A stretch of DNA of 64,000 bases, taken from assembly GCA_036172245.1 (NCBI GenBank), contig JAYWIR010000009.1, forward strand, positions 1,116,001 to 1,180,000. The letters are read 5' to 3'. Positions 1 to 45,168 of the stretch are shown here, in pieces. This stretch comes from Raillietiella orientalis. Its lineage: Eukaryota. Made by a program: the position numbers and the translations under genes. The notes under the pieces are model-generated. The model saw nothing but the letters and a program-made list of their open reading frames with translations, did not search any database and was not told the DNA's origin. Position 1 is the first letter of the stretch. Every line of letters starts with the position of its first letter.

Positions 1-600
1 TGTTCCACGCCAACCGGGTGACCGCATAGCGACTCTTCAAGATAAAGGGGACCACCGGAAAGGTTCCGGAGGAAGGAGTCCGTTCCTCCTTCTACTCGTA
101 GGAGGGAACCCCGAACCTATTCCTCATCTAGGAAGGAATCTCTCACCAAAAGGACCCCCCGGTTTTTGTTTGGACCGCGCCTCGTCTCTTCTCCGAAGGG
201 AACCTGGAAAGAATCCGCTCCTGGAATTTATTTTCCGAAGGGAACCCCCGCGAGGGAACTGCTCCTTATTTCCTCCTCTGGAAAGAACCCCGATGGAGTG
301 CTTCCAAGTTTCCCTGAAGAGAACTCCGAAGAGAACCGCTTCCTTGTTTTTCCTGGAAGGATCTCGGGAGGACAGCCTCCGATCCCGAGCAGTCAACGGG
401 GACTTCTGGTTTCCGGGCTTCCATCGCTGCAGCACCCAAAGCCTACAGGCCAACCAGCGTGATTCATCCTGCGGAAAGGATTCGAAACCCACGACGCACC
501 CCCTATTTCTCGGGCGTCGATGCTTCCCCGGGAGGGATTCGAATCCGCGACGCTCGGTGCCACGTGCGGAGCCGCAGCCACGCAGGCTGCCAACGCGGGC
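1..600 (-). mobile_element. tRNA-headed SINE-like repeat family A, copy 1 (runs off the window start)
   Basis: The minus strand starts GCCCGCGTTGGCAGCC...GCGGATTCGAATCCC (B-box), then a second GGTTTCGAATCC, then the hairpin-unit array. It aligns by eye with seven other copies. Confidence 0.75.
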
Positions 601-779
601 AGCACATCCGAAAAGGAAAATTTGATGCTGGATTCTTCAATCTCTTGCCTTTCGTCCCCAGAAAGGCTCCTCCAGACACCTGGAATGAGACCAATCGGAA
701 TTGGGACACATTTTGAGTAAGAAAACGGTTCTGCATCGACTTGGGTACGGAGAAGGCAATCACTGAGAAGAGGATAGAG

Positions 780-1160
780 AAGATCAATTCACTAATGAGA
801 CACTGAGGAAGTAATTCAAACGCACTGCTTCAGACAAAGATGAACTGTCCTTTGCCTCAGTAAGCTGAGTGGAGAGGTTCTGGAAATCCGGCAAGGAGAG
901 GGGGAAAGCTGGAAAAATTCCCATGTGCAGTCATGAAACAGGCTTGGGATAATACAGATTTGAGATGCACCGAAGAGAGGAATGACCTTCCTCGAAGTTT
1001 GGAGAGTTCTCATCGCTGGAAAGAATGTAACGCAGCTGGAGACACGCGCAAACTTAAAGAGCTGAAACACACCAGCTCTGTGCTGCTTTTGCATATCCAG
1101 GCATCTTCAGGATGCAAGAACACCATCTGTTTCGATCTCAAGTTGCACGTCCTCTAAAAG
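780..1160 (-). mobile_element. Possible BEL/Pao gag fragment
   Basis: IPSLFHDCTWEFF followed, after a frameshift, by SSLSEAVRLNYFLSV. This resembles the Pao gag pattern PxFxG..W..F / LS..EKxxYL. Confidence 0.3.
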
Positions 1161-1949
1161 AAGCCGGATGAGAGACTGAAAGGTTTCCTTTTGCGAGAAG
1201 TGCGGAAGCTCGAAGTTGGTTTCTAAAGAAGAGAGGCGCTGCACTTTTTCCAAGAACTATTTCTGGCACAAAGTTGTGAGCACTCTCATTGCCTTAGCTT
1301 TTGGTCCTTTGTGAGCATGCCGAGCAGGAGATGTAATTCAATTTCCTCTTTCTCTCTTGAGAAGCTGTCCAATGATGATCCATGATGCAACAAGTAAGTA
1401 TGAGGTAATGGTTGCGGACGACCGATCGAATGCCTCGACATAACTAGATGAGCACAAAGACTAATCTAGTGTCATCACTTATGAAGAGGACACTTTCAAG
1501 TGCTACCAAGCACGGGCAGCTAGGTCAACTACTCACTGATCCTGTTCGGTTCCTTTGGTTATTTATTCTCTTCAGAATTCAAACTCAACTCGAATTGAGA
1601 GTACTGAATAAGAAAAACACGTGTGGTATGGCGTCATAGCAATAAAGTAAGAAGGTCGCAACGCACCCATACAGAACTACAGCTAAAGAAAACTTTTAGT
1701 TTTGATTTTTTTCCAATAGTCAGATGTGCTCCAGACGAGGATGTTGTCACTGATGTCTTCTGAACACGCATTAGAAATTTCCTTCTGTACAACGACCTTC
1801 CTCCATTCTCTCATCCATTTAAATCCCTTCTTGACTGGGGAAGAAGATCCGAAAGGACCCCTTTAGCATATTCCACGGTCTTTTCCTTTGAATACCCCTT
1901 AACCACCTGCAAACGAAACCTTCTTTCCTCATCAGAAGTTCGTTTCACA

Positions 1950-6024: not shown

Positions 6025-6558
6025 AGCGGGGGAAGGAGGCTCGTTCCTCACTTCTTCCTGGGAGGCAACTTTCCTCCCGCCCTGGTTGCCTTTCGAAGGG
6101 AGCCCCGGAAGGAATCTCTTCCTTATTCTCTACGGTTTCTTTGAGGGGTCACTCCTTGTTTCTTCTCCTAAGGGAATTTCCGCAAGGGAACCGCTCCTTT
6201 TTTCCTCCCCCAGAGACGCTTCCCAATGTCTGCGGACGGCGTTTCCCGGAAGGAGCAGCGCGCTTTTCTACACCTTGAAGAGGAATTGTCAATCCAACAG
6301 CTCCATGGAGCTTCATCTATGCAACCGGAGGGGAACCTTGAAGAGAACCGTCGCCCCTTCGTTCCTGGAAAGGCCCCGGAGGGTCGATTTCGGATCCCAA
6401 TCAGTCAACGGGGGCATCCGGAGACTTCCGGTGGAATCCCCGCGTGGAGAGAATGGAAACCGACGACGCTCCCATTTCTCGGCGTCCACGGTGGGGATTC
6501 GAACCCGCGACGTTTCGAACCATCCGCGGAGACCGCAGCCACGTGGCCGCCGAAGCGG
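6025..6558 (-). mobile_element. Family A copy 2
   Basis: Shares ccgcaagggaaccgctcc, cagctccatggagcttcat, cagtcaacggg and ggattcgaacccgcgacg with the other copies. Confidence 0.75.
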
Positions 6559-7599
6559 GAGGAGGAAGCAGGAAGGATCGTTTACTAGCTCGGGTTTCCC
6601 AGCCCGCGAAAAGGACTAGAACACTGCGAGTGCTCCCGGCCGAGAGAAGAGCAAGCGAAATGAGGAAGAGTCGCGATTCTGACAGTGGAGTTTCCTGTCC
6701 TCTCCACTGGAAGTGGATTGAGTGGGACACCATTCATTAGGAGGACACACAGCAGAAGACCCTCTCCACTCTTCGGTCGCTTCATTAACGACGGTGAGCT
6801 CCCGTCCCTGCACTCGTCCTGGAAGCGCTCAACTTTCTTGACAGATCTCTGGGTTCCTCACGTGCGCGCGGACCCGCAGGCCGTTGGCGGACGACGTGCA
6901 ATGAACGCGGCGCGAATCGCGGATCCCTTTCGGAGGGGATGCTGGATGCAAGCAAAGGGCGAAAGGGGCGCTGCTGTTCACGAATACTCCTGCCACAGCT
7001 ACAGCGAGAAGAGAAGAAAGCCTCTTCAGAGAAAGAGGGCTGCTGGCTCACCTTCCTGGAGAAGTCGAGATGAGCCTGAGCGAAAACGTCCCGACGCTAC
7101 AGCACCGAGGCTGTACATCCGAACTGGGACGCTGCCGAGGGTTGCAGCCGCCGAAGGCACTATGATTTTCTGCAGAACGGACTCGCAGTTTTTTTCATTC
7201 CCTCCTGGCTACCATCCTCTTCGTTGAGAGGGACGGAACGGGAGAAGAATCGCGGAAGGTCGGGGCAAACACTCCCGGTTACCTGACGAGTCCTGCAGGA
7301 AATGGAGAAACCTCCAGAGCCAGAACGAACCAGAACCCCTTTCTCCTTAGAGAATGCAGGCTGCTTGACGTCTTATTGCCACGGGAATTCGTGATTTTTT
7401 TTTTTTTTTTCCCCCTTGCAGCATCCACTCTCCTGAGGGGTGAACTTCGGAAAGTTAGTTGAATCCCTTCCTGTCCCCCTCATCTGCCCCGTCCCAGACA
7501 CAACGGCATCAACGTAACCCGCGAGGATGTCGAAGAGGTCCCTCTGTCGATAAGCTGCAATCGCAGAACGGGTAACGCGGGGTCATAACAGCTGGTAAA

Positions 7600-9350
7600 T
7601 ATTTGTGGTCCCCTCCCTCCCGTTCCGGACTTGCGGCTTACCGACCTGCGTGTCGGGGGTCCCTCTATTCGTTTTTCTGTGTCCTTTGTCCGGGAACACT
7701 GTTCTCGGATCGTTTAGAAATAGATTCCCCGGCGCACCCGGGTGGGAAAGTATGCAAAAGCGCCAAATCGGACAGAGGACTTCGGGGAGATTCATCTTCC
7801 GGCACCTGTTCAGCACGCGATCGAGCAAATTTCTTTTTTCTTTTTCCAAATCAGGGGGGGGGGGGGAGAAAAAAAAACATTCATCCTTAAGGAGGGCAGT
7901 GCAATCGAGCAGGGAGCACCTCGGGACGCTGGGCGCGCTTCCAAAGCAACCACCCCCCGGACCGACGGTGGTGCTCCGCGGATGCCACCGCCGTGCCAGC
8001 TCCGTCTCCCCGGCAGGTCCCGGGACGAGTGCTCATCGACCAAAAATCGGGTGGGAGAAGGGGAGCGAGGGAGAGGGGGGAAAAAAAAACCTGCGCGCGA
8101 CGTTGGCGTTCTCCCGCGGAAAACCTACGTCCCTGCTGAGGCGGTACGTCCCTTTGGATCCACTCGTTAGTAAATGATGATTGGGAATTTTTCACGACTG
8201 CGTGAATGTCATTCTTGTATTCTTTTTATGAATATATTCGACACTGCGCTTGTGTCGGCTCCGTAATAAAAATACCGCTTTGATGATGCTCGGATTTTCG
8301 ATATCACATGTTGATCACATTGCCAGTTTCCTCCCGCGTGTACCACTGTTATCTGGTCCGGCCGTGTGAGAGGCTCTCCGACAGCACCAAGGTAGGACTC
8401 TTCTGCCCTTCCTCCTATCCCCCTTTTTTGGGGGGAGGGGGGGGGCGTCCTTTGGGCATTTACTCGGAAGGGGCTTTGAAACATCCCGTGGCGTTTTTTT
8501 CTTTTTTCTCCGAAGATTTGCCACCGGCGGCTGGACGGCACCCGCGCGAAACGGCTGGGGAGGGAAAAAGAGGTGGGAAGGGATGCCCTGCCCACACTTC
8601 TGCCGGAACTTTCGTGGACCCCCCCCCCATTCCTCCCTTCTGTGAGATAGTCCGCGCAGGAAGATTTCATTGTCGCGGAGTAGGGTTTTCAGCCCGAGGA
8701 AAGAAGGGGGGGAAAGGGAAGGGTCCTCGCAAAATTTCATTGCCGGAATTCGGAACCCGCAAGACCTCAACGACCTGGTCGTTTGTGGACAAGCGGACCG
8801 GGGGTCTCTCTGATTCCTGGAGCGGTGAGAAACCCTCCGGGAGAGCACCCACTCGCCGGCAAGAGGAGCTAGCCGGGAGCGCAACAAGGAGTGAGTGTGG
8901 CTTACCCCTGGCGTTGGCTGATTCCAGAGTCGCTTCAGGCTGCTCGGCCACCTCCACCGGGGGAAGAGCAGGGACTCACGCTGAAGAGAGCACCGGAGCA
9001 CCTGCACCGCAAGCCGGAGCGGCTGCATCTCTCGTTCACCGGAGAGAGCAGCTCCCAGCATCCGGACCCACTCTGCGGATCCGCTGCTGGCGCGCACAGT
9101 GCGGCCCAACCGGAGTCATTCGGGGGGATTTCCGGAGGTGCAAGCAGCGCGGGACGTCCGTCCAATAATCCCATCTTTCTTGTTGCTGTTCGGCTCGTGC
9201 TGAGCACCTTGGGGTCTCCACGGAGTCGTCCGGGGACACCACGCCACCCGGCGCCATGGCGATCGGCACGGCACCAGCCATCGGGGAGGGGGGGGAGGGC
9301 GCACCGACTTCCTCCCCGGACAGGGCGATAAGGTGAAGAGGTCGACACCC
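7600..9350 (+). mobile_element. Decayed Ty3/Gypsy pol (RNase H to integrase)
   Basis: Integrase-like order SFVDKRTG...ECGLPLALADS...VLSTLGSPRSRPGTP. Heavily frameshifted at homopolymer runs. Confidence 0.4.
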
Positions 9351-9599
9351 GGCCGCGCTGCCGTAGCGGAGGGCACCCGGTATGCAACGGGTTCGGAAGG
9401 CGGGCGTTCCGAGGGAGTGCGGGAGTTCGCCGCAAAGGGCACAACGAACGTGTCTGCGTCCGGCGAACAGACCCCGTTCCCGAAAACAAGCCCTCCGACT
9501 GAAATGGGCAGATGCGTCTCTTATTGCTGCTGCGGATTCAGGGCCGCTGCAGGGGAAAGCGGTGGTCGATGTTTCTTCTCTTTTTTCCAAAAAAAAAAA

Positions 9600-14100: not shown

Positions 14101-14299
14101 ATTCATTCCGACTGAGTCTACGGCACGAATGGCCGTATCGGATGGATCCTCAAGCAAACTCTACGAACTCCCCTTACGGATGTCATTGAAGGTGGATAAG
14201 GGAGTGGGGGAAGGGAGAAAGGTGACCAGGAGAGAGTAAGAAGCGCGTAAATGGTCGATATCCTAAAGAGTCCGCGTTTCAAGAGTTTTCTCGATTACT

Positions 14300-14900
14300 C
14301 TAGAAAGATATGAAAATTCCGAATCTTCTTGGATCCATTCTGCAAGCCAGAGAAACTTCGTTGCCTCCGATGTCTGTCCTTCGTGTATTTTTAATGAACC
14401 TCTACGAGCTTCACTCGGTTTGTCCTCACGCTGCTGCGTTTTCTTGCGGGAGCAGACGCAGTCCTCTGCATGTAGGAATCTCTTCCTGTGGAGTCGGTTC
14501 CAAAAGACTTCCCTGGATTGCGTTTTCCTCCAGGAATTCCAAAGTGGGAATCCAAGAGCCTCCAGGATTGCGCAGTTTCCCTCCGCACGTACTCCATCAG
14601 GTTTTAAGCATGCGTCCAGGTGGAACTTGGCATCTCTTTCGGTTTTGAGGGCATACCATCCCCTATGGGGAAAGTCTCCTTGTCTCTGTAGTTTCTTTGG
14701 TTACCTGGGAATCCTCCAGACTTGTCCTTCTTCCAACAGATGAAGATCCATTCATTTCACATCATACGTCGCTCAGCATCATTGCAGAACGAGTACTTTT
14801 CATGGCTCCTGTTCCCCTTCGAAAGAAACTATAAACTCAATAGAAGAAACTTAAAAGTTGGGAGGATACTGGGAAACAAGAGGCCAGACTCCGTGCAGTG
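14300..14900 (+). mobile_element. Gypsy integrase fragment
   Basis: SVLRAYHPLWG resembles the T(S)AYHPQxNG motif. Confidence 0.35.
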
Positions 14901-15019
14901 CGTGGAAGCTTAGCTCTTTGTTTTCTTTTGGCTTGCCAAGTGCTGAAGAACTGTCTTTCTCCTTAGGGGAAGGAGGGGAGGGGGGGCTCACTCCATCCGC
15001 GAAGGCATCCAACTATCCA

Positions 15020-15660
15020 AGTTAGAGGACACCTCGAGAGGGAACCACCCTATGAATCCAGAAAGGCTCCGGAGGAAGGAGTCCCGTTCCCCTTACGCTT
15101 CGTAGAGGGCCCCGAAGGGAATCTCTTCCTTCTTCTCCACAGAGAGACCTCCGGAAGGAGCACTCCTCATTTCTTCTTCGCAGGAAATCAGGAAAGGATT
15201 TGCTCTTGGAGTTTCTTCTCCAGAAGAAACTTCCGCAAGGGAACCACTCCTGGTTTCCTCCTGTGAGGAGAATCCCGGAGGGATGTTCCCAAATTTTTTT
15301 GAAGGGCGCCCCCCAGAAGAAGCAGCGCGATTCTTCACACCCTGGAGAGGAATAAGTCCACCAGCTCCATGAAGCTTCATCTGTGCAACCGGAGAAGAAC
15401 CCCGAAGGAAATGTCGCTCCTTGGTTCCTGGAAGGACCCCGGATGGTCGACTTCCGATCCTGGCCAGTCAGCGGAGGCATCCGGGGGTCTCTGGCTTTTA
15501 CTAGTGCCGCACCCGAAACCTAGAGGCCAGCTGGGGTCATCTTGCGGGGGGAACTTGGAACTCACGACGCATCGCCCGTTCTTGGCGCTCTATCCTCCAC
15601 CTGGAGATGCGAACTCGCGACTCTTGGCACCACTCGCGGAGATCGTAGCCGCATGGTCTA
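15020..15660 (-). mobile_element. Family A copy 3
   Basis: Contains accaccctatgaatccag...ctccggaggaaggagtcccgttc...cacgacgca...ttggcaccactcgcggag. Confidence 0.75.
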
Positions 15661-15899
15661 GAAGCTTCATCGGCACAACCAGATCTCGAAAGAGGAGCAG
15701 GGAAAGCTGCTTTCACCGTATCTCCCTGGGGAACAACCAATGTCTTTTTCGAGCGAAGGGGATTCCTTCCTGGTAGATTCGTGGAAAATAGGATGCAAGG
15801 TGCAGCCTGTGTTTTGGAAAGGAATTGCATAGGTGTCTAAAATAGTGAGCAAGGAATAGAAAAAGGAGCGGCATCTCTTGGAACACTCACCTCTTCCAC

Positions 15900-21800: not shown

Positions 21801-21829
21801 GGAAATCATCGACTTTGCTTAGTTGAAAT

Positions 21830-24676: not shown

Positions 24677-24849
24677 TTGCTTTGATCCCAGGTTTCCCCG
24701 GGTCCGACAATCGGTGCGGTGAACTTATTCAACAACGACAACGGTACAATCACAGTAATGTTGCCAAATCACACTCGTCTGGTCATATTCCGTCTGCGGA
24801 TTTTCACAATTCGCCGTTTTCCACGCACGTTGGGTGTCCTTGGGGATGT

Positions 24850-25360
24850 CACCATCAAGGCCGCTTCCCTTAGAGAGGATTGCTGAGGGCTGGAGGGCAG
24901 TTCGCTCTCTTGGGGCACGTCCGCGATCTTTTTCAAGATGTGGAGGTACGTCCAGGAGGGTATCCTGCCTCAGTTCCTGACCTGCGTCTCTCGTCCTATC
25001 AGTCCCCTCAATGCTGATGGCGGGAGCTGTAGCCCACGTATTATTCTCATCTTTGCCCTTCTTATCACGGCACCCGTGACGAAGAGGGCGATGGTGGTGG
25101 TCCGAATCATGGGATTGTACCGTGGAACATTTGGTTCCCATCGAACATTCCCGCGAAAATCTGTATACTCTTGTGGTCGTCTGCAGGCCAATCACAGCGT
25201 GCTCCAGTCTGGGCGCAGCGTCGGGCAGATGAGGCCGTGGAGCTCCTTTCGATCACAGCAGGCTCGTGGTCATGAGGATCCGAAATCAATCCGAAACCTC
25301 TGGGCCTTGACTTTCTTCTTCCATAACTTAAGTGAAAAACGTCGCCTCGACTACTGAAAG
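24850..25360 (+). mobile_element. Non-LTR (L1/Tx1-like) RT fragment
   Basis: RPISPLNADG (~RPISLLNxD) and a later degenerate RG..QG.P-like segment. Confidence 0.45.
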
Positions 25361-25861
25361 CTGCCGATTTTTTTTTTTTTAAAAAAAAAAAAAGAAAGAA
25401 AAGACATGACCGCTTAAATGTTTGCCTTTTCTGACTGTGCAGGTGGTGCATACTCTTGAAATTTTCCTCCTAACACAACCTCTTTGTTCCAGATGAGTAA
25501 GAAAACAGGACTGGGTCCTTCGCTGTCCGTGATGCAACCCATCAACGTCCTGAGGGAGCAGTTTTCCCACAAAACACGACAATCCCAGATCAGAAAGAAC
25601 CAAGAGTACTTGAACAGAATAGGTTAGCCAACGGTGTAATCGGTAGTCGTGAGTTTAGTTCAAGTGAAGAAAAAGCTCCACTGGGCTTCGGCGGTGTGCT
25701 GCACCAGTAATGCACGATTTCCATTTGAAATTTCAACATTTGGTTAGTTATGTATGGCGTAAAAAAAAAAAAATGAAATAAAAAATCATCACTCCCAGAG
25801 TTTCTTGTCTTTTTCACCAAGCCTTGGATTCTACTGGCCTAAGACGATGGAAATACTCTTG

Positions 25862-26625
25862 GGTTCCTTTCTGTCGTCGCTGTTTTCCTTCCAGCTCTTT
25901 TTTGGCTCGCCAAGTACCTCAGGAACCGTCGCGCCTGGTGGCTCACGCAGCTCTTTAACGCTGTTCCACGCCACCCGAGGGTGCGTGTAATTCTTCAAGA
26001 TAAGGGGGTGCCCCGAGAGGGGACCACCCTATAAATCCAGGAAGGACTCCGGACGAAGGAAACCCTCTACCCTGGTTGTCTCCTAAGGGAGCCCCCAAAG
26101 GAATCTCCTTCCTTTTTCTCTCTGGAGAGATCCCTGTAGGAGACCGCCCCATTTTTTCTTCTCCAAAGGGAACCCGGAAAGGACCCGCTCTCCGGATGTC
26201 TCCTCCGGAGGGAACCCCCTCAAGGGAACCGCTCTTTGTTACTCCTCTGAAGAGAACACCGGAGGGACGCTTCCGAATTTTCTCAGAACGGCAACACGCT
26301 TCTTTGCACTCTGGAGAGGCATCATCAATGCCAGCTCCATGGTACGAGACGGAGAGTTCTCCTTGAAGGGGGGGGGGGATGATCCGCTCCTTTGCACAAC
26401 TGGAGAACTCTCACTCCTTGATTCCGTTTCGTGGAAAGGCCCCGGAGGGTCGACTCCCAATCCCAGCTACTCATCAAGGCATCCGGTTTTAACCACTCCA
26501 AGTGCTGCACCCGAATGAATAGAGGCCAACCAACATCATCTTGCAGGAACCTACATCTCTCGGCGTCGAACCTTACCGAATATTCGACCCCGCGACGCTC
26601 GGAGACCGCAACCACATGGTCTTCG
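25862..26625 (-). mobile_element. Family A copy 4 (longest 3' extension)
   Basis: Contains ggtggctcacgcagctctttaacgctgttccacgcc...ggaccaccctataaatccaggaagg..., with the tRNA-like end near 26580-26625. Confidence 0.75.
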
Positions 26626-27499
26626 ACGAGGTTCAGTGGTTACGGTTTTTCACCAGCCTTTGGGTTCTAGGGGAAACTGGCCGTTTGTCGCAACCGCAAG
26701 GGATTTCTCCAACCTTGAGAAATGGGATGCTCCCCTCATTTCCTGTGAACAAATGCACCAGAGCCTCATCAGGGGTCGAGACAGAGACCTTCTTCGTGCT
26801 TCTGGTCCCGAACCTCACTCTGGAACTCAGAGACTCGAGGCGAAACTCAGCGTTGCATCCTCTGCGATCACTGAAGGTCTGTCGATGAGCGCCGAACGCC
26901 CGTAGAGGACTCTTTCTTTCAAACGCAGAAACATAGGGCTCAGTAAGTTTTCGGGATGCAGTTGTGCTCTAATCCGAACCAACCTCGAGCCCCAGGTCTT
27001 GAGGACTGATTGGAGAGCAAAGGCGATTCCCGAGTCCTTTCCTTCGAATCCTGACCTGTTGTTCTCATCGCCATTTCGCCTGTTCTTAGTGTACAAGACG
27101 TGACCGAGGTGTTCGAAAACTTCGGGGAGAAGATGAAAGTCCAAGAAGATGCACGCGAGAGGTTACAAGCGGGAGAGGCGGGGGAAAGCAGCTGAGTCGC
27201 CGAAAGCTTCTGGAGGAAGCCCGTCTTGGAAATGAAAGGGAGTTCTCACTTTGATATCAGTCGGTGGAGAGCTGGCGGAGTGCCGAGCACCAACAGACGG
27301 CAGTGCCTTCTGGAGTTGGCCGTGGTGCAGCCCACTTCTGGTGTCGCCCTCCAAAACACAGCTGCTTATGGACATTTTGCTAGGCCGAGCGTCGAGCCCC
27401 GCTGAGGAACTTCGTATCAAGCAATGGCTGCTGGAGAGCTATTAGTATCGCTCTGCTTGATCAGAACGGAGCTAACATGACCTCGCAGCCGTGGCGAGG

Positions 27500-31900: not shown

Positions 31901-31999
31901 CGCGTGGGGGTCGGTGAGCCAGCATACCATCCCAGCGTCCAGAAGTTGGTTCGTTCCGGCGATGAGGCGCCCATCCGGCTGGAAACTGCCGTTCCTCTC

Positions 32000-32390
32000 C
32001 CTCAAAGAAGGGTTTCTTTCCAGATTTCCTTCGGAGAAGAAACAATGGAGAGGCTTCCTTCAGGGGTCCCTCCGGAGAGAATAAGGAAGAGTTTCCGCCT
32101 TCGGGGTTTCCTTCGGAGACAACCAGGGTGGGAGAAAGGTTCTCTTCGGTATTGCCTCCCAGGCGTGAGAGCAACGGACTCCGTTTCCTCCAGAGCCCTT
32201 CCTGGATTCATAGGGTGATCCCCTCCTGGGGTATTCCCTTTCTTGAAGAGTTAACACTTATCTTGTGGTGGGGTGGAACAGCGTTAAAAAGCTGCGTGTC
32301 CCGCTAGGCACGCGGCGGTTCTTGAAGTACTCGGCAAATCAAAAAAAAAAAAAATCTGGAAGGAAAAGAACGACGACAGAAAAGACTTCC
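32000..32390 (+). mobile_element. Family A copy 5, 5'-truncated, opposite orientation
   Basis: ccttcctggattcatagggtg...gtggaacagcgttaaaaagctgcgtg...ttcttgaagtact...ctggaaggaaaagaacgacgacagaaa is the reverse complement of the copy 4 sequence. Confidence 0.7.
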
Positions 32391-32859
32391 TATTCATTCC
32401 AAAAGATTTCTGTCATCAACCTCTTCGGACGATCTTCTGCCTCCCCCAAAACGAAAACGCTTGGCAGCAGGCGGCGCTGGAGTCCAGGGTGTCACTCTGA
32501 GTGCGCTGCAGAAACTCCCATGCAAACCACAGGGAGATCTCCTGCAGGAACTGGACACAGTGGCCCCTGATAGCCGTCACAATTCTTGCTACAGCACTGT
32601 CTGCTCTCAGGGCAAACTATGGCAGCAGCCAGGAGGAGGGGTGGAAGTCATCGCACACAATTGCAAGAGTTGAGGAAATCCCTGAAGGCTGCAAAAAAAA
32701 AAAATAACTTGGATGGAAAATACAGAATGGAACCCCAAAGGATTTCCATCTTCCTCGAGAGAGGAGCTGTTCTGCGACTTGGAGGTCGGAGACGCTGTTT
32801 CTTTGGGATCCCACCGGACCTCCTCCAGGAAGATGCTGCTCAGGCGCAAGGCGAAATGA

Positions 32860-34175
32860 ACTGACCCTGAGAAGGTCCTCACGACCCCGGTTCAGGAGAT
32901 TGTATCCTTCTCTGTCTCCATGAGTTGCAACTCAAGGGATGGCGAGAAATCCATTGGATACTTTTCCAAAAGATAGGCCACTTCAGCGGAAAACCAAGTG
33001 ACCTCTGAGGACCCGAGTCTTGCAAGCCTCGCGCGCCGTCGGCGCAGCCTCTCTAACTGCGGACTACAGCTTCGGCGCGTGCCCACTCTCACCAGAAAGA
33101 ACAGCTGGATCTCGTGCCACCCCGCGAATGGTGGTGCTTGGTTGCGGGAAACCGTCCACACGTGGGCGGAGCACAACGAGTCATGCTCGGAACGGACTCA
33201 GCGTTTGCTGAGCTGTTTCTATAACAACGGCTACCTCCGGGAGATTCTGAAACACCCTCTGAGGAGTGCGTGGGCAAGACTAACAACGTATCTTGCCGCA
33301 GCGCTGCACCCCTTGAGGAACATTGGAGCAGCAGCAGCCTTGTGGCTAGATGGGAGGTTAGTGTGGAGATCTCTGCCAGAAGGAAGAGACTGCACGAAGG
33401 ACGACGGGCCAGCTTACGGACGCTGTGACCCGGATGTCACAGCGTCCTCAAAGTCCTCATGGACTTTTGAGCTAGGGCGAGCTACTGGATATTCCGGAGG
33501 AATACCTGCAGTGGACCCCACTGCTCTTGGACAGACGCACACCTTCCCGTTAATAGTGGCAGGAGTCGGCGTTCGAGATGCCGAATTGAGGTCTCCCGTG
33601 CAACGCCTGCCGGCATCACTAAACCCGGGAGAAAGTTAGACCCTAAGTGAGCAAAATGTGAGGAACGTGGATCCCTCCCTCACCTGCTTGTGAACTGTGT
33701 TGCCCTCCGGCACCTCTGGGAGCGCTTTGCCGCCACCCTACGAACCCCCGAAGGTAACTCCCGGGAATCATCAAGACCCCTCTTCGCACACGATGCTCTT
33801 CGGCAGGCAGCTCTTTGCTGCCTATACGGGATCATTACTGCCCGGAGAGACGCAAGAGGGGGACTGATAGAGAGAGATGCCATCCACTTCGCCGTCCGCT
33901 TCATGAGGATGACCCCGCCTAGAAAAAAACATTCAGAAAGAGCTTACCACCATCCTCGAAAGGATTCATAGGATCTTTCCCAGCAGAACGTGACCCCTTT
34001 GCACACCCCTCCAAAGTTTATCTATTTTTTATTTTTGTTTATCCCCTCCCCTCTGCTGCCGTGGTGGACCGTACCTGTGAACCATTAACGCGGAAGGCTA
34101 AGTATGAAAAGGACGTGGTTGGACGGTTGTACAACCACAAAGATTGTAGATGTTTGTTTATTTATAAATAAACGC
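32860..34175 (+). mobile_element. L1/Tx1-like LINE 3' portion with zf-RVT-like motif and 3' UTR
   Basis: HPANGGAWL (~PxxxGGLGL) and KCEERGSLPHLLVNCVALRHLW (C..ExxxHLLxxC..W). It ends near an AATAAA at ~34167. Confidence 0.55.
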
Positions 34176-35545
34176 TCCGGCTCACCCGGGTGATAGCCCG
34201 AGTCTTGCAACCCTTTGCAGCCCGGTCCAACTCCTCAGGAAGTCGCCCTCTGGAAGGCGCCGTCGCTGTGTCTGAATCCAGACTTCTAGAGACAACTTTC
34301 CGAAGTGTAGATGCGGATACATCCTCTTCAGGATGAAGATACCCCGTCTGGTACCGAGGCGCAGGACGACAATGCCTTCGAGGATGACTGCTGGCCTCTT
34401 TCGAAAGATCGTCGTCGCTTCACCTCTTCTGGCAGGTGGCGGAGGGGGAGACGGGAGTGGTCCGAAGGCGGGAGATGGAGGATGGACAAAGGTCAGGGAG
34501 CTCCGAGAGAGACCTTCGTGCCGGAAGTAGATCTGTTCGAGTGTAGGAGGGAATTCTCTAGCATCATTTCAGAGCAGGCTGCCAATCGAATGCATCCGGA
34601 GGAACTGGACTCGAAGGAAGAGGACAAGAAAGCGCGGAACCCGAGAAAGGCAAGTGGGAACGGAGGCAATCAGCTCGTCGCCCTCCTCCCTCCTCAGTGG
34701 CTCCCTTTAATTCCGGAAACGCCGGTTCATTCCTTCTCTCAATCAATCAATGACACGGGTGGAGGAGAACGGCGCCATATTGCGGAACGCGAGGAGCTGA
34801 CCGATCCTGTGGTGGCGGCACGTGAGGGTGGAGGATGGGGAAAGAGGAAGCAGCTAAGTTAATAAGTGAGGTACGACCCCTCCTCGGGAGCGGTCCCGAA
34901 AGCCCGCTTCGAGAAGAAGGGAATTGGACCGTCTCCCCCGGCGCGCGTTTTCGGTAATCCCTCCTCCAGTTACTGCGGCAACCTGCCCTAGCAGCACCGC
35001 TATCCCACTTCCCATGACGACGGATGTGGCGGATAAGGGAGGCAAGCGTTCAGAGCAGTGGTTCATGAGGCACGTCACTGGCAGGCTCTTGCGAGGTAAA
35101 AAACCCATCCCCTAGCAAGAGGAAGAACCCGAAACATCAAAGAGGTTTTTCAGGGTAATCCAAGCGAACCTCTCTGCCTCTTTGGAGTCCGGAAAGCGTC
35201 TCTGGACGAGGCTTCGTCATTCATCCCACGGTGGACAGGACCCTGATCCTGAGGATCAGTTTTTACGCTGCAGGAGAATTCATCCTATCTTCTCATCGTA
35301 GTTGCAGGAGGGAACCTAGGACACCCTGGGAAGCCTGCAAGAGGTCGTGCGACTCGCCCCAGAGCTACTGCCAGAACACTGGACGCTCTGGAATTCTTCC
35401 ACTATCGGCTGGCAGGAGACTTTTCAGAGAAAGGTGGGGACCGGTTACCAGGAGCTCGGGACAAGATGCGAGGAGAGAAGGTACGGAAAGGGTTGCGGAG
35501 TCTGAGAAAGTGACTGGCAGTGGTCCTTTTCTCAAGAGGATTCGT

Positions 35546-36205
35546 TCATGAAGCTCTTGGACATCGCCCGCGCAACCCGAAGGGGCGCATCACTCTTCAA
35601 GCTAGATAGGGTAACCCCAGAGGGACCACCCTATGAATTCAGGAAGGCTCCGGAGGAAAGAGACCGTTCCTCTTACGCTCGGGAGGAAACCCCGAAGGGA
35701 GCCTCTTTCTTATTCTCTCCTAAGGGAACCAGGGAAGAAACCGATCCTGAATTTCTTCCCCTGAGGGACTCCCAGAAAGGATCAGCTCCTTGTTTCCTCC
35801 TCTTCGGAAGAGAACCCCGAAGAAAGGCTTCCAAATTTTCCTGAAGGATGCTTCCCGGAGGGAGCAGCGCACTTTTTGACACTGGAGACAACTCCCCGAG
35901 GGGGATATCAATCAGCTCCATGGTACGCGATGGAGCATCTCTTCGAGAGGAGGGGGTGCTCCTTGGTTCCTGGAAGGACCTTGTAGGGTCAAATTCTAAT
36001 CCTGGCCAGTCAACTGGGCATCTGGTGTTTCCGGCTTCCACAAGTATCGCATCTAAAGCCTGCAGGCCACTCAGCATCATCTTGTGGGATGAACTCGAAA
36101 CCCACGATGCATCCCATTTCTTAACATTGACACTTCTCCGGGAAGGATTCGAACCTGCAGCGCTTGGTGCCATGCGCGCGTAGCCACACGGGCGTCAACG
36201 CGGGC
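35546..36205 (-). mobile_element. Family A copy 6
   Basis: Ends in ggaaggattcgaacctgcagcgcttggtgcca...caacgcgggc, the same 5' boundary (GCCCGCGTTG on the minus strand) as copy 1. Confidence 0.75.
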
Positions 36206-36209
36206 CTGT

Positions 36210-38300
36210 GGTAGGTCGCTCTTCCAGATCGCATCCCCAATCGCTCACAGGTTCACGATTTGGTTCCCGCAGCGGTGGGCAGGTATGAAGAGGGCTCCGC
36301 TGCCTCCGTCTCTAATGAGATTTCCCTCGGGTTCTTCTTTGTTATTCTTTGGTTCTTCTTTGGACCACGCATAGTTACTGTGGTTTTCTCCACGGTTTGC
36401 GTGTCCTACCAGTGTGATGTCTCGCTGGCTGTTCGCGGCTGCTATGCAGCCGCATTTCGTGGAAAGGTCCACTGGTGGTGAACGGTTCGCACTCCCCAAT
36501 GGTCGGTCCAGGCTTTCGAAATATCCAAAGCTGCTTCTCCCGGTGAACAGGAAGGAAGCAAGAAGTCACCGAGGCCCCATCCAGATTTCTTTACTGCGAG
36601 GTACCATCTTGAGATGGTGAGTCCTCACCGGTGATCTGCTTTCTTCCCACATGGGATCCATGTCCGCCTGCCTTCCAGGCTTGCCGATTGGGGCTGACAT
36701 CAGGCCACTGCGAGGTTGTTCAACGACTTCGGAAGGTTTCCATGAGCCACAGGCGGTCGCCTGTCCCCATGCTCGGCGAGTTCAACGTGCCATCTCGTGT
36801 TCGTGCCCTCCATGGCCGTTCCAGAGACTTCATTCCTATCCGGTCGCCTTCTCCCGGGCGGCACAGCAGTTTGAGCCTCAATCCGCGGTTCCAATTCCTT
36901 TCAGAGAAGTTTCCTTTGAAGTTGTCCGACCTTCGTTTGAGGCTTCTTGTCCATTCGGCCTCCGTAGAGCACGCCGTTCCACAAGTTAGCCTTCCTCTTC
37001 ATGCTGGAGTCGATACGAGAGTACTTTCCTGCCTCTTCTCTTCTGGTTTTACCCAGGACCGCTCTCCAAAGAATCTAGGACACGGAAGCATTTGCCATGG
37101 CAACCTATTGAACGCTGAAATTTGAAAAATTCTTATCCGATCATAAGGGAAAAGTCAGAGAGGCAGGGATGACTCAGCCGCTCCAAAGGCAGAAGAGCAG
37201 ACCATACGAGCAAGAAGCTCCAGGTGCAAAAAATGGGAACAGAAGCGCAAAACAGAACCTTCGAGCAAATCACCTTTTTCTGCCATCGAGATGAGAGCAG
37301 TCAGCTAAGGTGAGGCACCTCCCAGATGCGAACCGAGTCTGGGAATGTGGGACGGAAACCCCCTGATTAGGACGCTATTCACAGAAATGAAGATCTGCGC
37401 GTGATGCGCACTTCGATAGGTCTCGCCTGTTTCGAGGCTCTTCCGCTCCCTTTTTGTGCGTTCCCGAGACCGCGGGACGTCAGGAAGAATAAGGAATTCT
37501 GAGGAATCCTCGACACCCGTTGGCAAAAGTCGGAAGGAAAATGATCGGAAGCAAGGAGCCAGATTCCTGCGTGTACAGTACAATCTCCACGGTGGAAACG
37601 GGACGTCCTGCTGTTTCTGCCCTGGGAGATTTCCGGTGCAACCAGAGCAGGTACCCGGTTTCCTGTGGAGTTGCTGCCTCCCCGAACTTTTCCAGGTGCA
37701 GGGCGGTGGGATCATTCCCACAACTCCTATTGGAGTGCACTGCTCTGGAGGATATTTGGCGGAGAGTTGCCTCGGTGACCTCCACCCCGCCCCGCCCACC
37801 CTCCTCGCTTCGGAATTGCTGCGGCGCTTCTTCTCGCAAGGCGGACTGACGGCGGACAAAGAGGAGGTCGCTTTACCGGAGGAGTCCCTTCGCCCGGGAA
37901 CGAGGAGTGGGATCGCCCACCAACTCGCTCGCCTTGCAGCCGTCGGGAATTTTCTCAACTCCTGTAATGGGATGACTACCACCCTGCCTCCTGGCTGCTG
38001 CCATTATTGGCCTCGAGGACAGACAGTGCTGCGGCAAGGGATGTGAGGCTATACGGGGCCATTGTGTCCAGTCCCTGCAGGAGATCTCCTGGAAGTTTGC
38101 ATAGGAGTTTCCGCAGCGGACGCAGTTCCTCTGAGTACACCTCCAAAGCGGCGACCCAGAACTCCAGCGCCTTCTGCCGCCGGGCGTGCCCGAGTAGGAA
38201 AGAGATGGGTATTCGGGAGGTGCTGCCTCTCAGCCATCGTTCCGAAGATGACAGCGCATGCAAGAGCTTTCACGGTCCGTAACTTTCATCAAATCACTCT
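36210..38300 (-). mobile_element. Gypsy (Mag-like) gag-protease-RT start remnant
   Basis: Gag-like ERQHL...RRQK...ELRPL (38000-38260), degenerate double zinc knuckle CSGCTG...DVP...CTRRN (~37560-37660) and a protease-like RIDSS near 37010. A related gag copy lies inverted at ~32465-32655. Confidence 0.5.
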
Positions 38301-39450: not shown

Positions 39451-39830
39451 GCATGCAAGGGAAACGACCCCATAAACGTCAATTTCCCGCGCGCTTCACA
39501 AGAGGGAAACTCATTGCCGGAAGATCTGCTGTGCATCCTCTGAAGTCAAGATACGAGTCCCGAGTAACTTGATGGGATTGCTTATCTCCTTTTGCACTTT
39601 GAATCACCTTAGTTTGGGGTTTCTTGCCTTCTACTCACCACTTTTTTTGCCTTCTGACCACCACCTTGCTTGCCTTCTAGTCATCATCTGTTTTGAGTTT
39701 CCTGAAACGATTCTGCTTTGTTTATTCCAGTTAACCGATTCCATGGAAACTGCCTCTCTTTCTTGTCTCCCTTTTTTTCAAAAAAAAGGAAATCTGCAAG
39801 CAGTACCTTTTCATCTTTGGGGTAATTCCC

Positions 39831-40525
39831 TCAGTACCTCAAGAACTGTCGCGCGCCTGGTGGCTCACGAAGCTCTTTAAAACTGTTCCACGCCATTCGA
39901 GAGTGTGTGCAGTAACTCTTCTAGTTAGAGGAGGTGCCTCGAGAGGAAATCCCATGAATCCAGGAAGGACTCCGGAGAAAGGAGTCCGTTCCTCTCACGC
40001 CTGGGAGGGAACCCCGAAGGGAACCTCTTCCTTATTCTCTCCGAAGGAATCCGGAGGGGGTCGCTCCATTGTTTCTTCTCCGAGGGGAACGCGGAAAGGA
40101 TTCCCTCTTGGAATTTCACCCCGGAGGCAACCCCCGCAAGGGAACAGCTCTTTGTTACTCCTCTGAAGAGAGCTCCGAAGGGACGCTTCCGAATTTTCTC
40201 TGAAGGGAGCGCACCTCTTCACACTCTAGAGACGTATCAATCCACCGCTCCATGGTACGAGATCGAGAAGGTCCCTTCCGAGAGGACTCCGAAAGGGGAA
40301 GGGGAGGTTGGCTCCATTTTCTGAACCGAAGGAGAATCCCGAAGGGAACTGAATCCTTGATTCTGATTCCTGGAAGACCTCGGAGGGCCAGCTTCCAATC
40401 CAAACCAGTCAACGGGGTCATCCGGTTTCCACCTTGTACCAGCGCCGCACTCGAACATAGACCAAGCAGAGTCATCTCGCGGAGGAACTGGAAACTCACG
40501 ACGCACTCATTACTCGCCGTCGATC
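39831..40525 (-). mobile_element. Family A copy 7 (lacks the outer tRNA-like head)
   Basis: Contains ctggtggctcacgaagctctttaaaactgttccacgcc...cccatgaatccaggaagg...aaactcacgacgcac. Confidence 0.75.
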
Positions 40526-41394
40526 CTTTATTTTCAGCTGGTCACGCTGGGGTGTTTCATGTAAAACATATATATATATATATATACATAGATACACATA
40601 AAAAACGGTCATATACTAGACAAAAATTGTCTTTCTTGGTAATGGCTTCACATCACCACGACGAAGGGAAATGCCTCGGAGGCGCTGCTTCTCGTGTTCA
40701 GTTTCCCGATGAGGTCCGCACAAGAGTGGGGGAAGGGGTAAACAAAATAAAGAACACCCACATACGAGTTAAGTACAAAAATATGTTGGAGAGGAATAGA
40801 ATGGATCACATATTTCTTCCTGGCGTTCTCAACATCCTCTGGAGGATGTTGGCAACTTCCTCCTTCACTATTTTTTTTTTTTTTTTTTGGAAAGAGAGTG
40901 TCTGAGCGGACGCGTTGGACTCGCGTTGCTGAGAAACCCGCGCGATTACGTAAAAACAATTTTCTTTCCTTTGCGCGCTGCCTGGGACGGGCGCCCCTTG
41001 GCTGTTGAATGTTCATTCCTGTGGGAACGGGAGTCCCCCGATCTCATTGGCTTGTCGTCCGGGCCGCGGGTACGGGCGTGTCCCGGATACCGAATGACTC
41101 GCACTGTTTGGTGACCACGCCCTCGAGGGCAGGCAGCGGCGATACGAGAAGACGAGGAACCGGACCAGGCTGCAAGTCACTTTCTTTCTGTACCGGATGA
41201 GGACGCGTCAGCGTGAATCGTTCGGGAAACAGGGAATGTGTGTGTGGAGGGAAGCGTTTCAGGAGCGGCGACGGTGGAGCCAAGGTCGACGACAGGCAAG
41301 GTCAGCGGCAGCTCAAGAACGTACGGACGGTCTGCCAACCCAGTCTCCCGAAACCCGTTGGAGCTGCGAGGAAGTGCCGCAAGCGAACCATCGA

Positions 41395-41735
41395 CCTGGA
41401 GACATCACACGGAGATGAGCTGACCATGCAATGATTAGACATCGACACGGAGATCAGTTGACGTCACGATGATCAGCCAAAGACAACAAGATGAGGCGGA
41501 AACCTGACCGAACATGCATCAGCGACGCGACGATCGTCCATCGGCACGGTGATGAGCCGGCGACACGATGATTGGTCAACGACCGGGCACTGAGCCGAAT
41601 GCCCAATGATCAAGCGACGACGTGGCGATCAGCCGGCACCAAGCCGGTCAGGCAAGGACACGGAGATGTGGAGAGGACACGGAGATGACCCCATACGATG
41701 ATGAGCCAACGACACGGTCACGAGTCGACGGGCTG
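41395..41735. repeat. Degenerate ~18-nt minisatellite (consensus approx. GACACGGAGATGAGCCGAC)
   Basis: Repeated cacggagatgagc / gacacggagatcagt / cacggtgatgagccggc / acgatgatgagccaac units. Confidence 0.6.
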
Positions 41736-41799
41736 CCTGACCAGTACAACTTTGTTGCTTCCTCCTCCACTTTTTTTTTTTTTTTTCCACTTTTGTTGG

Positions 41800-42760
41800 C
41801 AGAGATGTGACCATCTTGCCGCCTTCCTCATGAAGGAGCAGTTGATTGGGATGACCTCACCGTTAACCCAGCCTCTTTCGGCGCAGCTTCTCGATACCGC
41901 AGTTCCGCGATGGCAGCACGGATCTTTGAGGGGAGCTGCAGACGACGTCGAGGCGCTCGTGAAGAGGCACCACAAAACCTCTTTGCCGTTGCCCATCGGG
42001 AGTGGAAGGGCCGCTGCGAAGCGTTGCCAATCACTCAGGAGAGCACCAGGTGCAGGAAAATTTTCCTTGCCCTGCACCTGAAACAGACCGGGACTGCAAT
42101 CCCTCTCGTCCAATGGTCGACTCGCGCGTTGAATGGGATCGTCCAGTGCAACAGCCGTGACGTCGAGTCCCGCCACTCCAGTGGAAGTATAAAGCTGTCC
42201 ACAAACACGGAGGAAATTCCACCTCTTCAGAAGGGATGTCCAGGAGCTCCGCCCAGTGAAGAATTCCTCTCGAGAGGGCGGAGGGGGTTCATGTGTCGGA
42301 CAATTGACACACCGCGCAGCATCCCTGCTGCTTCTTTTTTCCTGCGATTTCCCAGGATAGTTCCCATCTCGCAAGGCCATCGCCACGTCCACTTTGTTGG
42401 ATTATGTTGCGCGTGGCTGCAAGTGGGGTGTTCCGTGCCCAGGTCGTCTTCCTTGGGCAGTCCTTGGTTTCCCGCAACGAGCGGCGAGCATCGCTCGAGA
42501 ACCGCAAGCTATCGCGATTGCTCCAGGCTCGTGCCGTCTCTTTCCGCTCACTCCTGAAGCGTTTCCTGTCTCCAGGCAGCTAAATGTTGGCGGGGAGGCA
42601 GGAAATCCACCTGTTTCTCCTGGATCAAGGCAGCCATTTGCCGGAGTTGGTACCCGCATCGGGGCAACTCTCAGTGGCCATGAACGGAAAGCGTACCGCG
42701 TTCCTCTGCTCTGACTGCTCGCTCAGCCAGGAGTCTGGCTGGGACGCATCAATGAATGGT
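41800..42760 (-). mobile_element. Gypsy RNase H plus integrase remnant
   Basis: DASQP (~DASxxG) near 42745. ORF 41718-42392 has DWQRFAAALPLPMGNGKEVLWCLF (~PWxRxxxD...GxxxLxxVD). Confidence 0.45.
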
Positions 42761-44477
42761 CCAGAGCTTCGCCTCTAGTGCTCATCTTCTACACTGGAGC
42801 TAAAGCTCCATCCTTTACGCGATCAATTTCCCTGAAAGCTCTATCCTTTACGAACATTCCCACCCTCAAGGCTTGGTACCACTCGCAAAGACGGCCTCCA
42901 ACGAGGGTTTTGTCTCGTTATAGACGTTCGGGTGATCCAAATGCGAACCAGACTTTCGATTTCATCCTGCGAAGAGTCTTTTCTGGGAACCTTGAGTTGA
43001 TCCAGTTGGCTTTTGCAATCGATGAAGCTCAAGAAGCAGTTTCCCCCGTCCTGGTGGCCATCTTCAGGCTCGGTGAACGCATGGAAGGCGCGGGCGTCCT
43101 TCCTGGAGCAAAAACTTCGTGCATGCGGGAATTCGTGCTATGGAGGAATGGGATCGCCACACGTCGACAAAATTCTCTTTAGGGTGTGGACGTCCTCGTT
43201 GCGGCGTGAAGCGACCGATGCACGGTTTCATTCCTGTTTGAAACCCTACAAAACCCGAGTTAGACATCCGTCAAGCAACCACAAGCTTATTGCAACTGGA
43301 TGTAAAAAGGTCTCTTCGCAGGGCGGCAAGGATAAGGGAGGATACCCCTCGTCTCTATGCTTCAGGCTTCCTCTTGCAGAGCGATCGTGCCTCGATGGCT
43401 TCTGCCTGCCTGCATGCTGGGTAAGAGAAACTCGTATTGATTTTTCACAGCCACCCTTGTGACCTACTCATGGCAGCTGTGTCCAGGGCAAGCAAACAGA
43501 CGAAACGTTTCTAAAAGAAAGTGATTTGCATCTGCTTCGAATAAAACTCACGGGAAAGACGTAAATATCGTCTCCGAACTGAGTACCGAGAAGATTCAAG
43601 CGCATCGATCCTCTTATTTGTTTTTAACTTCTAAGTCTACTCTCTCTTCTTTTGGAGGATTTCTTTTTTTTTTTTTTTGGTACTTTTGTTGCACTTTGTT
43701 TTTAGAAAAGAAAAGAAATATGGCGATGGTTTTGGAGTAAAAATCCTGCATACTCAAGAAGAAACATGACTTTGCACTTAGCCCTGTTCCCGAAATTACC
43801 GCTGCTTGTGCATTCGTTTCAGCTCAAAGCCAGCCGATGCGACCACTCATCCGAAGAGGAACGACGACTCTTCTGCCTCGGTTTTCGTACCGTTTCGCCG
43901 TTCAGGCAGAGAAACATTCCAGAAATTTCCGAGGCGCTTGGATCCACCGTTCGAAGCGACAGCTTCAACACAGTGTTTCGCATTTCTACTCTTGACAGTT
44001 GCGCTGAAGAGATTCTCATCCAAAGCGTAGCCGAAAGCGGAAAGCTGGGGCCCCTTCGAGACCATGAAAGCTCAGCTCCTGAAAAGGAGATTCAGAAGCA
44101 GATGCCAGCGTCTACTTCTGAATCGTCTGCTTTTGGTGCCTTTCCTCGGACTGGAGGAATCCATCTTTTCAAATGCTCTGGGAATTTAGAGGTCAGGTCT
44201 GTGAGGTGAATCCATTTCCCTTCAGCCTTCTTTTTGGCTTCACACGGATTCAACAGAAATGCTACAAACGAGGAACGGAAAGAAAAGAAAGGAATCCCAG
44301 ATAAAGACATCCCCGATGAGAGTTGTAGAGGAACAAATGAATTTCAGTTTCCTGCACTGGTGCAGGGCGAGAGCAGCCCAAGCAGCTCCTGCAAACGCAA
44401 TGCCCCAAAGCCTCATTTCTTTTTCTTTTTGTTTAGTTCACCAAGCGCTGAAGAACCGTTCGCCTCTTTAAGGAGGA

Positions 44478-45168
44478 CTCACGAAGCTCTTGAACACTGT
44501 CCATGCCACCTGAGGGGGCGTGTTTAACTCTTATAGTTATAGAGGGGACCACCCTATGAATCCAGGAAGGCTCCGGAGGAAGGAGTCCCGTTCTCTTACG
44601 CTTGGTAGGGAACCACTTCCTTATTCTCTCCAGAGGGGTCAGTCGGTCCCCCTGAGAAAAAAATGGAGCGAACCCCTGAGGGGCTTAGCTCCATTTTTCT
44701 TCTCGGAAAGGATACGCTCTTGGAGTTTCTTTTCCAGAGGGAACTTCCGCAAGGGAACCGCTCCTGGTTTCCTCCTGTGAAGAGAACTCCGAAGGGACGT
44801 TCCCAAATTTCTCTGAAGGGCGTTCTTCGGAAGGAGCAGCGCGATGCTTCACACTCTGGAGAGGAATCATCAATCCACCAGCTCCATCGAGCTTCATTTG
44901 TACAATCGAAGGGGAACTCCGGCTGCACAAATGAAGGGAACCGTCGCTCCTTGATTCCTGGAAAGACCACGGAGGGTCGAGTTCCAAACCCGGACAGTCA
45001 GCAGAGGCATCCGGAGATTTCCGGATGCTTCCACCAGTGCCGCACCCGAAGCCCACTGGCCAGCTGAGGTCATCCTGCGGGGGAGAATCGAAACCCACGA
45101 CGCACTTATCTCTCGAGTTCGGTCCTTCCCCGGGCGAGACTCGAACCAGCAACGCTTGGCACCACTCG
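44478..45168 (-). mobile_element. Family A copy 8, head abutted or interrupted by a mariner remnant
   Basis: Contains ggggaccaccctatgaatccaggaaggctccggaggaaggagtcc...gaatcgaaacccacgacgcac...cgcttggcaccactcg. Confidence 0.75.

Follow-up and report, generated by a model that had tools for sequence, protein, structure and literature searches.

What are the eight homologous repeats with a transfer RNA (tRNA)-like head that lie in the first 45 kb of a 64,000-nt stretch of Raillietiella orientalis DNA (assembly GCA_036172245.1, contig JAYWIR010000009.1, positions 1,116,001 to 1,180,000 of the forward strand; hereafter the window)? The initial annotation offered three answers: an unusually long short interspersed element (SINE), a multicopy structured non-coding RNA (ncRNA), or the leader, driven by RNA polymerase III (Pol III), of a larger element. 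It is concluded here, with a good deal of confidence, that the family is a tRNA-derived, presumably non-autonomous retroposon, i.e. a SINE, of exceptional length. The first answer is the one that the genome bears out, with a tRNA-derived head, a conserved B-box, a T-run followed by poly(A), and target-site duplications in young copies. Apart from its length and the landing of a long interspersed element (LINE) within it, this SINE family is mechanistically ordinary. Neither this family nor a LINE that targets a tRNA-SINE is described in the literature searched, which included few subscription papers and no repeat databases.

The head and its B-box

Both a shared 5' boundary and B-box conservation, the two features without which the initial annotation would have given up its proposal, were found throughout the genome. 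In 50 aligned heads the composition of the flank is random as far as position -1, while the head base is present in 72-96% of the heads at each position from +1 to +11. Moreover, an exact 16-mer head pattern has 318 matches in the genome, against 4 for the reversed control.

The tRNA comparison covered 30 of the 62 tRNA loci found in the genome. The first 80 nt of the element score 63 with tRNA-Arg(CCT) and 61 with tRNA-Glu(TTC), the best among the 30, a level reached by none of 300 dinucleotide shuffles; the antisense head (172/300 shuffles) and the segment of the second box (92/300) remain at chance level. The aligned identities are 50/72 (63% of 79 columns) for tRNA-Arg(CCT) and 50/71 for tRNA-Glu(TTC), in line with the SINEBase rule of at least 60% tRNA identity over at least 60 nt; with 30 of 62 loci compared, the two are candidate source tRNAs.

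Among 52 11-mer windows in 82 long copies, the first B-box has accumulated the fewest substitutions, 46 against 114.5 expected from trinucleotide context, or against 102 once subfamily-variable columns are dropped, and it ranks first to third for conservation in three separately collected copy sets. The motif GTTCRANNC is intact in 34 of 55 scorable old copies (20/35 and 14/20). The head had been described as carrying two B-boxes: the first is indeed conserved, while the second arose as a duplicate of the T-arm and is degenerate, with a conservation of about 85% where the mean is 83%. No excess of compensatory change was detected in the T-stem among copies (5 against 4.6 expected). The conserved feature of the head is a DNA motif and not the tRNA fold, since the A-box region, the T-stem pairing and the second box are not specially conserved.

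The tail and the target-site duplications

The tail, which had been left unresolved, consists of a T-run plus poly(A) at the full 3' end. Old copies mostly stop at an internal A-run or at TTTCCATCATC, and ten of the 11 aligned tails are some 45 nt longer, reaching a conserved end beyond which T and/or A runs follow. A long terminal repeat (LTR) reading, with TG...CA counted from the TTTCCATCA end, was dropped because the tail runs further. A solo LTR has both ends fixed, TG...CA termini and a duplication of 4-6 bp; it was rejected in view of the ragged 3' end, the GCCC start, the poly(A) and the duplications of 12-14 bp.

Young groups were located by exact patterns, and head-tail pairs were taken from the first 100 of 245 head matches; 11 full-length young pairs were examined and three further pairs were left out. 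These copies measure 1.00-1.10 kb from head to T-run and lie in 10 loci (loci are cited by their L numbers). In six of the 11, a 12-14-bp duplication starting with AAA(A)G directly follows the poly(A); by independent loci the count is 5/10, two of the six positives being one duplicated locus. As a control, 2 of 110 cross-pairs match, most likely through the same duplicated locus. Furthermore, L179 is cut at about 720 nt yet bears an A-tail and a duplication matching at 12 of 14 positions, and the SINEBase-class signature of retroposition (A-tail plus target-site duplication) is therefore seen in L179 as well as in six of the 11 young copies. Two of the copies, L177 and L180, have no TTTT in 1,041 nt against 6-7 AAAA runs. 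Poly(A)-tailed SINEs are mobilised by relaxed LINEs of the L1 clade (PMC3747384), and the duplications after the poly(A) are a signature of A-primed insertion by relaxed L1-type machinery.

The element could also be read in the opposite orientation, as 5'-truncated copies whose "head" is a fixed 3' end, or as a rolling-circle element, and that one end is fixed and the other ragged would suit this. The tRNA likeness, the poly(A), the T-run and the duplications all fit the sense orientation, and the fixed end has neither a target motif nor the CTRR that Helitron ends carry, so that the probability of this reading is negligible; for young copies it is refuted by the A-tail and duplication found at the opposite end.

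As a separate observation, the 3' end of the element in L012 (2275-2334) has formed a perfect inverted repeat of about 28 bp, which gave spurious matches to microRNA models.

Copy number and age

The assembly comprises 210 Mb in 491 contigs. It was sampled at 59 arbitrary stretches of 10 kb at round coordinates (590 kb, the stretch adjoining the window being excluded), in which 31 family copies cover 15.6 kb, or 2.6%. Scaled to the genome, this gives some 11,000 copies, with a Poisson range of roughly 7,500-15,700 and with small contigs under-sampled. With copy 8 of the window as query, 4,971 first-look candidates were obtained, of which 40 were scored, with matches on more than 20 contigs at 65-81% identity. 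Together with the 318 exact head matches, these figures describe an interspersed, non-tandem family well above the 100 copies that SINEBase asks for. Divergence from the consensus is 12.5-26% (mean 17.7%) in the 86 copies for which 300 nt or more were aligned.

Some loci have a history of their own. Two pairs of loci, L008/L009 and L193-L196, are near-identical with common flanks, and are either recent segmental duplicates or assembly duplicates; in L181 a young copy lies antisense within an older copy of the same family; and in L091 (around 7900) the flank 5' of the copy is the reverse complement of the head, i.e. a head-to-head inversion. Family-wide identity at CpG columns is 78% against 83%; since CpG is only slightly more changed, weak CpG methylation of these repeats is suggested.

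Subfamilies, truncated copies and the conservation of the box

Group Y2 shows 2-7% private change, its closest pair being 4.6% apart, and group Y1 shares a deletion in the tail, five of its six copies ending at the CATCATC site. Distances within subfamilies are 8-14%, against 24-30% on average between them; a third candidate, Y3, was rejected as a subfamily for its internal distance of 26%. The subfamilies are 21-30% apart yet all keep GGTTCGAAT, which points to many source copies.

Truncation is strongly polar: in the arbitrary sample 2 of 30 copies are headless and 13 of 29 tailless (p=0.0009; hand count, edge-cut copies omitted). The 3' end of L175 lies where its own sequence resembles the target, with a duplication of about 22 nt. 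Three further copies stop at the CATC site or close to it, namely L126, L003 and window copy 4, whose duplications measure about 59, 50 and 24 nt, respectively. Flanking duplications date at least some of the 3' truncations to the insertion event. Tailless retropseudogenes arise by internal priming at single-stranded, A-rich sites with complementarity to the target, as set out in PMC5322556, and the truncated copies match such priming.

The same observations could be understood in another way, namely that the family is a SINE by origin whose dispersed B-boxes are selected in place as thousands of TFIIIC-bound chromatin sites, heads being kept while tails are deleted. This would agree with B-box substitutions at 40-45% of expectation even without the subfamily-variable columns, with an A-box region and T-stem pairing that, unlike the B-box, are not conserved, and with head-only fragments being commoner than tail-only ones. 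It would also agree with the star-like tree of 73 long copies (terminal branches summing to 13.6, internal ones to 0.78) and with the private changes that fall in the B-box in young groups, 6 of 172 against 11.1 expected (p=0.07). However, the divergence of source lineages is directly visible (21-30%, with the box kept) and suffices to explain the pattern. Where a LINE has split a copy, the B-box decays at 9/102 positions (8.8%), near the 7-17% of the LINE pieces themselves; the truncations of L175 and L179 date from insertion, being flanked by duplications; and only the 34 of 55 scorable old copies mentioned above retain an intact GTTCRANNC. Selection in place is thus considered unlikely. The same doubt applies to the broader proposal that some 10,000 B-boxes, seeded by this Pol III SINE, are TFIIIC sites that the host keeps by purifying selection, with heads retained as tails erode, and that several LINE subfamilies have become specialists for fixed sites in the tail and 10-110 nt downstream of the box, the SINE serving them as a landing pad with several sites. 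If true, in-place selection of the B-box in dead copies would mean genome-scale, SINE-derived TFIIIC sites with a direct evolutionary signature, a matter of far wider interest.

The hairpin array

Between positions ~230 and 690 the body is an array of tandemly duplicated 35-45-nt units with CCCTTCGGGG-like hairpins at their centre; the CTTCGG motif occurs six times in sense and never in antisense. Global folding is mildly better than that of shuffles (z -1.5 for the array, -2.0 overall), and local folding reaches z -2.4 to -3.6 in sense and -2.4 to -2.6 in antisense. No covariation among copies survived correction in 450 candidate helices (best p=0.004, uncorrected). When the stems of one subfamily consensus are followed in another, three of four comparisons show fewer broken sense stems than expected (p 0.002-0.005; 0.32 in the fourth), as between young subfamilies with 15 against 27.6 (p=0.002) and 13 against 24.9 (p=0.004); for antisense stems p is 0.04-0.12. 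Compensatory changes are few, 2-4 per subfamily comparison (3-4 against 1.3-1.4 expected). These stem results lend modest support to the hairpins having been kept in source lineages and none to an RNA function for the host.

The second of the answers initially offered, a functional structured ncRNA that Pol III transcribes from a multicopy gene, could claim the stability of the local hairpins, the stems of one young subfamily that are broken less than expected in another, and the strand bias of the CTTCGG motifs. It has to contend with antisense folds that are about equally stable, few compensatory changes and copies without covariation. Furthermore, no conserved upstream flank and no homogeneous gene set were found. 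In the window no Rfam family reached its gathering score (Rfam 15), and over 12 loci Rfam gave 16 sub-threshold matches, none to a tRNA or ribozyme. The copies stand 12.5-26% from the consensus and are frequently truncated or interrupted by a LINE. The ncRNA gene was therefore set aside as highly improbable.

LINE B and its landing sites

In the first 390 kb sampled, about 4% of the sequence belongs to a second repeat, B, which represents the 3' end of a LINE of the APE-RT-knuckle type (RT, reverse transcriptase). Upstream of the B 3' end, L129 has APE-, RT- and CCHC-knuckle-like stretches that are 28-37% identical to the LINE protein of L172, which in turn matches PF03372 and PF00078; LINE B, as represented by L129, combines an APE endonuclease, an RT and a C-terminal CCHC knuckle in one open reading frame (ORF). 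Three frames of B had no match in Pfam, and a C-terminal frame, when compared directly with the young LINE protein, gave no significant match.

LINE B lies antisense at position ~165-175 of the SINE model in 12 loci, a count biased by the fact that nine of them came from a search seeded with an interrupted copy. The inserts measure 49-1,075 nt, duplications are visible, and only L032 and L033 have the same 5' end, i.e. the LINE entered one site repeatedly and independently, with duplication. Moreover, it is found in sense at the CATCATCC site in nine loci (L025, L030, L033, L038, L042, L045, L050, L057 and L093), and in sense at about position 75 in window copy 7 and L004. Among arbitrary copies one in 31 has the antisense insertion, and 3 of 18 B 3' ends touch the SINE in the arbitrary sample, where the SINE covers 2.6%. 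An L1/Tx1-like LINE has entered the SINE repeatedly at fixed sites.

The nine loci in which a LINE fragment follows the 3' region of the element in sense are also what might be expected if Pol III transcribed the element as the 5' leader of something larger, a LINE or a composite element, the third of the initial answers. The LINE pieces begin at differing points, and in four of the nine the tail of the element resumes after the LINE, with the site duplicated; the 3' ends of young full-length copies, for their part, have a T-run, A-tail and duplication of their own. The young LINE arrays, examined in three stretches of 9.5 kb, hold nothing of the SINE, which speaks against a leader role, and yielded no partner with the same tail. 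The leader is largely refuted by the duplications and scarcely credible. For like reasons (a tail that resumes after the LINE with a duplication, and no tail in common), LINE B was rejected both as the partner and as the body of a larger element.

Other LINE sequences were recorded in passing. The young APE-RT LINEs, of about 5.6 kb, stand in head-to-tail tandem arrays (L171-L173 and many other matches), in which neighbours are 75-97% identical, one open frame runs to 1,810 aa, and a 49-nt junction segment is common to different subfamilies. In L191, and possibly L201, a LINE B-like 3' end directly precedes a young SINE head, perhaps a further target site. In the window itself, positions 33136-34195 (+) hold a free-standing 3' kilobase of LINE B outside the SINE.

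Proposed mechanism and points against it

A life cycle may be proposed from these features. TFIIIC would bind the B-box, and Pol III would transcribe the element from the head to the T-run; the conserved B-box and the lack of an internal TTTT in two of three young copies checked are indirect signs of this. The enzyme pair of an L1/Tx1-type LINE would then nick 5'-CTTT(T), prime on the A-tail and paste the copy. Some copies would be primed internally, at A-rich tracts or, by microhomology, at CATCATCC, giving 3'-truncated ("tailless") copies, a few of them with longer duplications. Any copy that retains its head could become a new source, with source lineages diverging by 21-30% and keeping the B-box core, which would account both for the conserved B-box and for head-only fragments outnumbering tail-only ones. 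Finally, a separate LINE family later took fixed sites of the SINE as targets.

Several observations weigh against the interpretation as a SINE. The A-box is degenerate and not specially conserved (about 80% for positions 1-55 of the head), and young subfamilies have an A at the position equivalent to C61, a base described as invariant in tRNAs. For a 1-kb retroposon, it is unusual that so few copies are truncated at the 5' end. One internal TTTT occurs in L174, and no partner LINE sharing the tail of the SINE was found among LINE B and the young LINE arrays. Five of the 11 young full-length copies have no duplication, and among older head-bearing copies it is present in 3 of 59, after removal of a self-overlap artefact (a 48-nt match at L155), with a power of 7-22% for 12 bp. 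Early screens of old copies, which gave 0/44 at a score of at least 8 and 0/47 at a score of at least 10, are uninformative because of copy age, with the power just given, and misplaced 3' windows. Length is the last of these points. The element had been estimated at 600-750 nt, which is too short: the consensus of old copies measures about 925 nt, and young full-length copies measure 1.00-1.10 kb. SINEs are typically below 700 bp and formally below 1 kb, as defined in the SINEBase paper (PMC3531059). The old consensus falls inside this limit and the young copies outside it, and since these exceed 1 kb the family is classed as an over-length variant of a tRNA-derived SINE.

The eight copies in the window

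All eight copies were recovered by self-BLAST and with the family profile (Table 1); all but copy 5, which is on the plus strand, lie on the minus strand. Pairs are 66-74% identical over alignments of more than 200 nt (best E 1e-107), and by the family profile the copies stand 14-23% from the consensus; they are dead relics. The exact 5' boundary ascribed to copies 1 and 6 is real, the 10-mer GCCCGCGTTG occurring twice in all, at 600 and at 36205 (both minus strand). The box pattern GG(A/T)TTCGAATCC was confirmed in copy 1 (at 546 and 489, 57 nt apart) and is absent from all the others; copy 6 has the plain family box GGTTCGAATCC, with a degenerate second box about 52 nt further on. The alignment score of the copy 4 duplication, 14.5, is equalled by 0.1% of control pairs. 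In copy 7, a motif of about 10 nt, AAAGGAT, is present on both sides of the LINE.

Table 1. Features of the SINE family and adjoining LINE pieces in the window (model, position in the family model)
Feature	Position	Strand	Remarks
Copy 1	1..600	-	Head intact; internal deletion of ~125 nt; end ~8 nt past window start (model ~749)
Copy 1, first B-box	535..546	-	One substitution relative to family box
Copy 1, second B-box-like duplicate	478..489	-	Degenerate
Copy 2	6027..6560	-	Head and intact B-box (6495-6505); 3'-truncated at model ~653
Copy 3	14880..15670 (approximate)	-	Nearly full length up to internal A-rich run; decayed B-box (15605-15615)
Copy 4	25834..26633	-	Head to just beyond TTTCCATC site (25846-25853); decayed B-box
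Copy 4, probable target-site duplication (~24 nt), upstream copy	26646..26669	-	12 nt short of head
Copy 4, target-site duplication, downstream copy	25810..25833	-	Immediately after element 3' end
Copy 5	32002..32419	+	3' part without head (model 508-883)
Copy 6	35542..36205	-	Head and B-box (36145-36155) intact; 3'-truncated at model ~763
LINE ORF2 relic	36209-37104	-	Abuts copy 6 head; related to young LINE arrays
Copy 7, body	39758..40528	-	Model 76-843
LINE B pieces in copy 7	40530..42576	-	3' end 40530-40867, upstream part 41803-42576; sense, at ~position 75
Decayed head fragment	42840..42908	-	Model 2-84, profile E 0.00086; probably the copy 7 head displaced by the LINE
Copy 8	44415..45173	-	Model 30-827, first 29 nt missing; B-box 45137-45147, second box ~45085-45096

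ARAGORN found no tRNA gene in the window. The frames that overlap the copies are of low complexity, and the one tested (44955-45548) matched only a neighbouring transposase relic. This relic, decayed and mariner-like (45200-45810, +), adjoins copy 8 upstream and has a weak match to PF01359 below the curated cut-off. A further LINE ORF2 relic related to the young LINE arrays lies at 24919-25263 (-). Finally, a low-GC region holds an amino-acid transporter exon at 47799-48431 (-; PF01490, E 8e-25), whose only longer relative found is 37% identical.

Comparison with known systems

The family is a large SINE, at about 2.6% of sampled sequence, which stretches the accepted size range. It is instructive for its amplification from numerous source copies that diverged in all but the B-box core, for its mixture of poly(A)-primed and internally primed insertion and for its role as a LINE target. 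Furthermore, the young copies, with 2-7% private change, make both Pol III transcription and the partner LINE accessible to testing.

Three groups of known elements invite comparison. With the poly(A)-tailed tRNA-SINEs that relaxed L1-clade LINEs mobilise (PMC3531059, PMC3747384) the family shares a tRNA-related head, a body, an A-tail, dispersed high copy number, subfamilies and, at an A-rich nick site, short duplications; a tail derived from a LINE was not found here. It is unlike typical tRNA-SINEs in its length of 0.92-1.1 kb, in a body that is largely a tandem hairpin array, and in its degenerate A-box, duplicated T-arm segment and many 3'-truncated copies.

The tailless retropseudogenes (Noll et al. 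2015, PMC5322556) similarly have a fixed 5' end, with 3' ends that cluster at internal sites, A-rich or otherwise defined, and the complementarity to the target at their 3' junction has its counterpart in L175, L003, L126 and window copy 4. They are described for therian mammals with their L1, whereas in the present family copies of this kind seem to have founded subfamilies (Y1); another difference lies in the long duplications (about 24, 50 and 59 nt) of three copies.

In the literature searched, the closest described case of LINE targeting is that of the Tx1-Mar LINEs in Mariner-N4_AMi and of Tx1 in Tx1D (Kojima 2015, PMC4494074). As with Tx1-Mar in Mariner-N4_AMi, a group of LINEs occupies two main sites of an old repeat, here of about 11,000 copies, one site being antisense near the 5' end and the other sense near the 3' end. 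The landing pad of Tx1-Mar is a DNA transposon, whereas here it is a tRNA-SINE, and LINE B is only a candidate Tx1.

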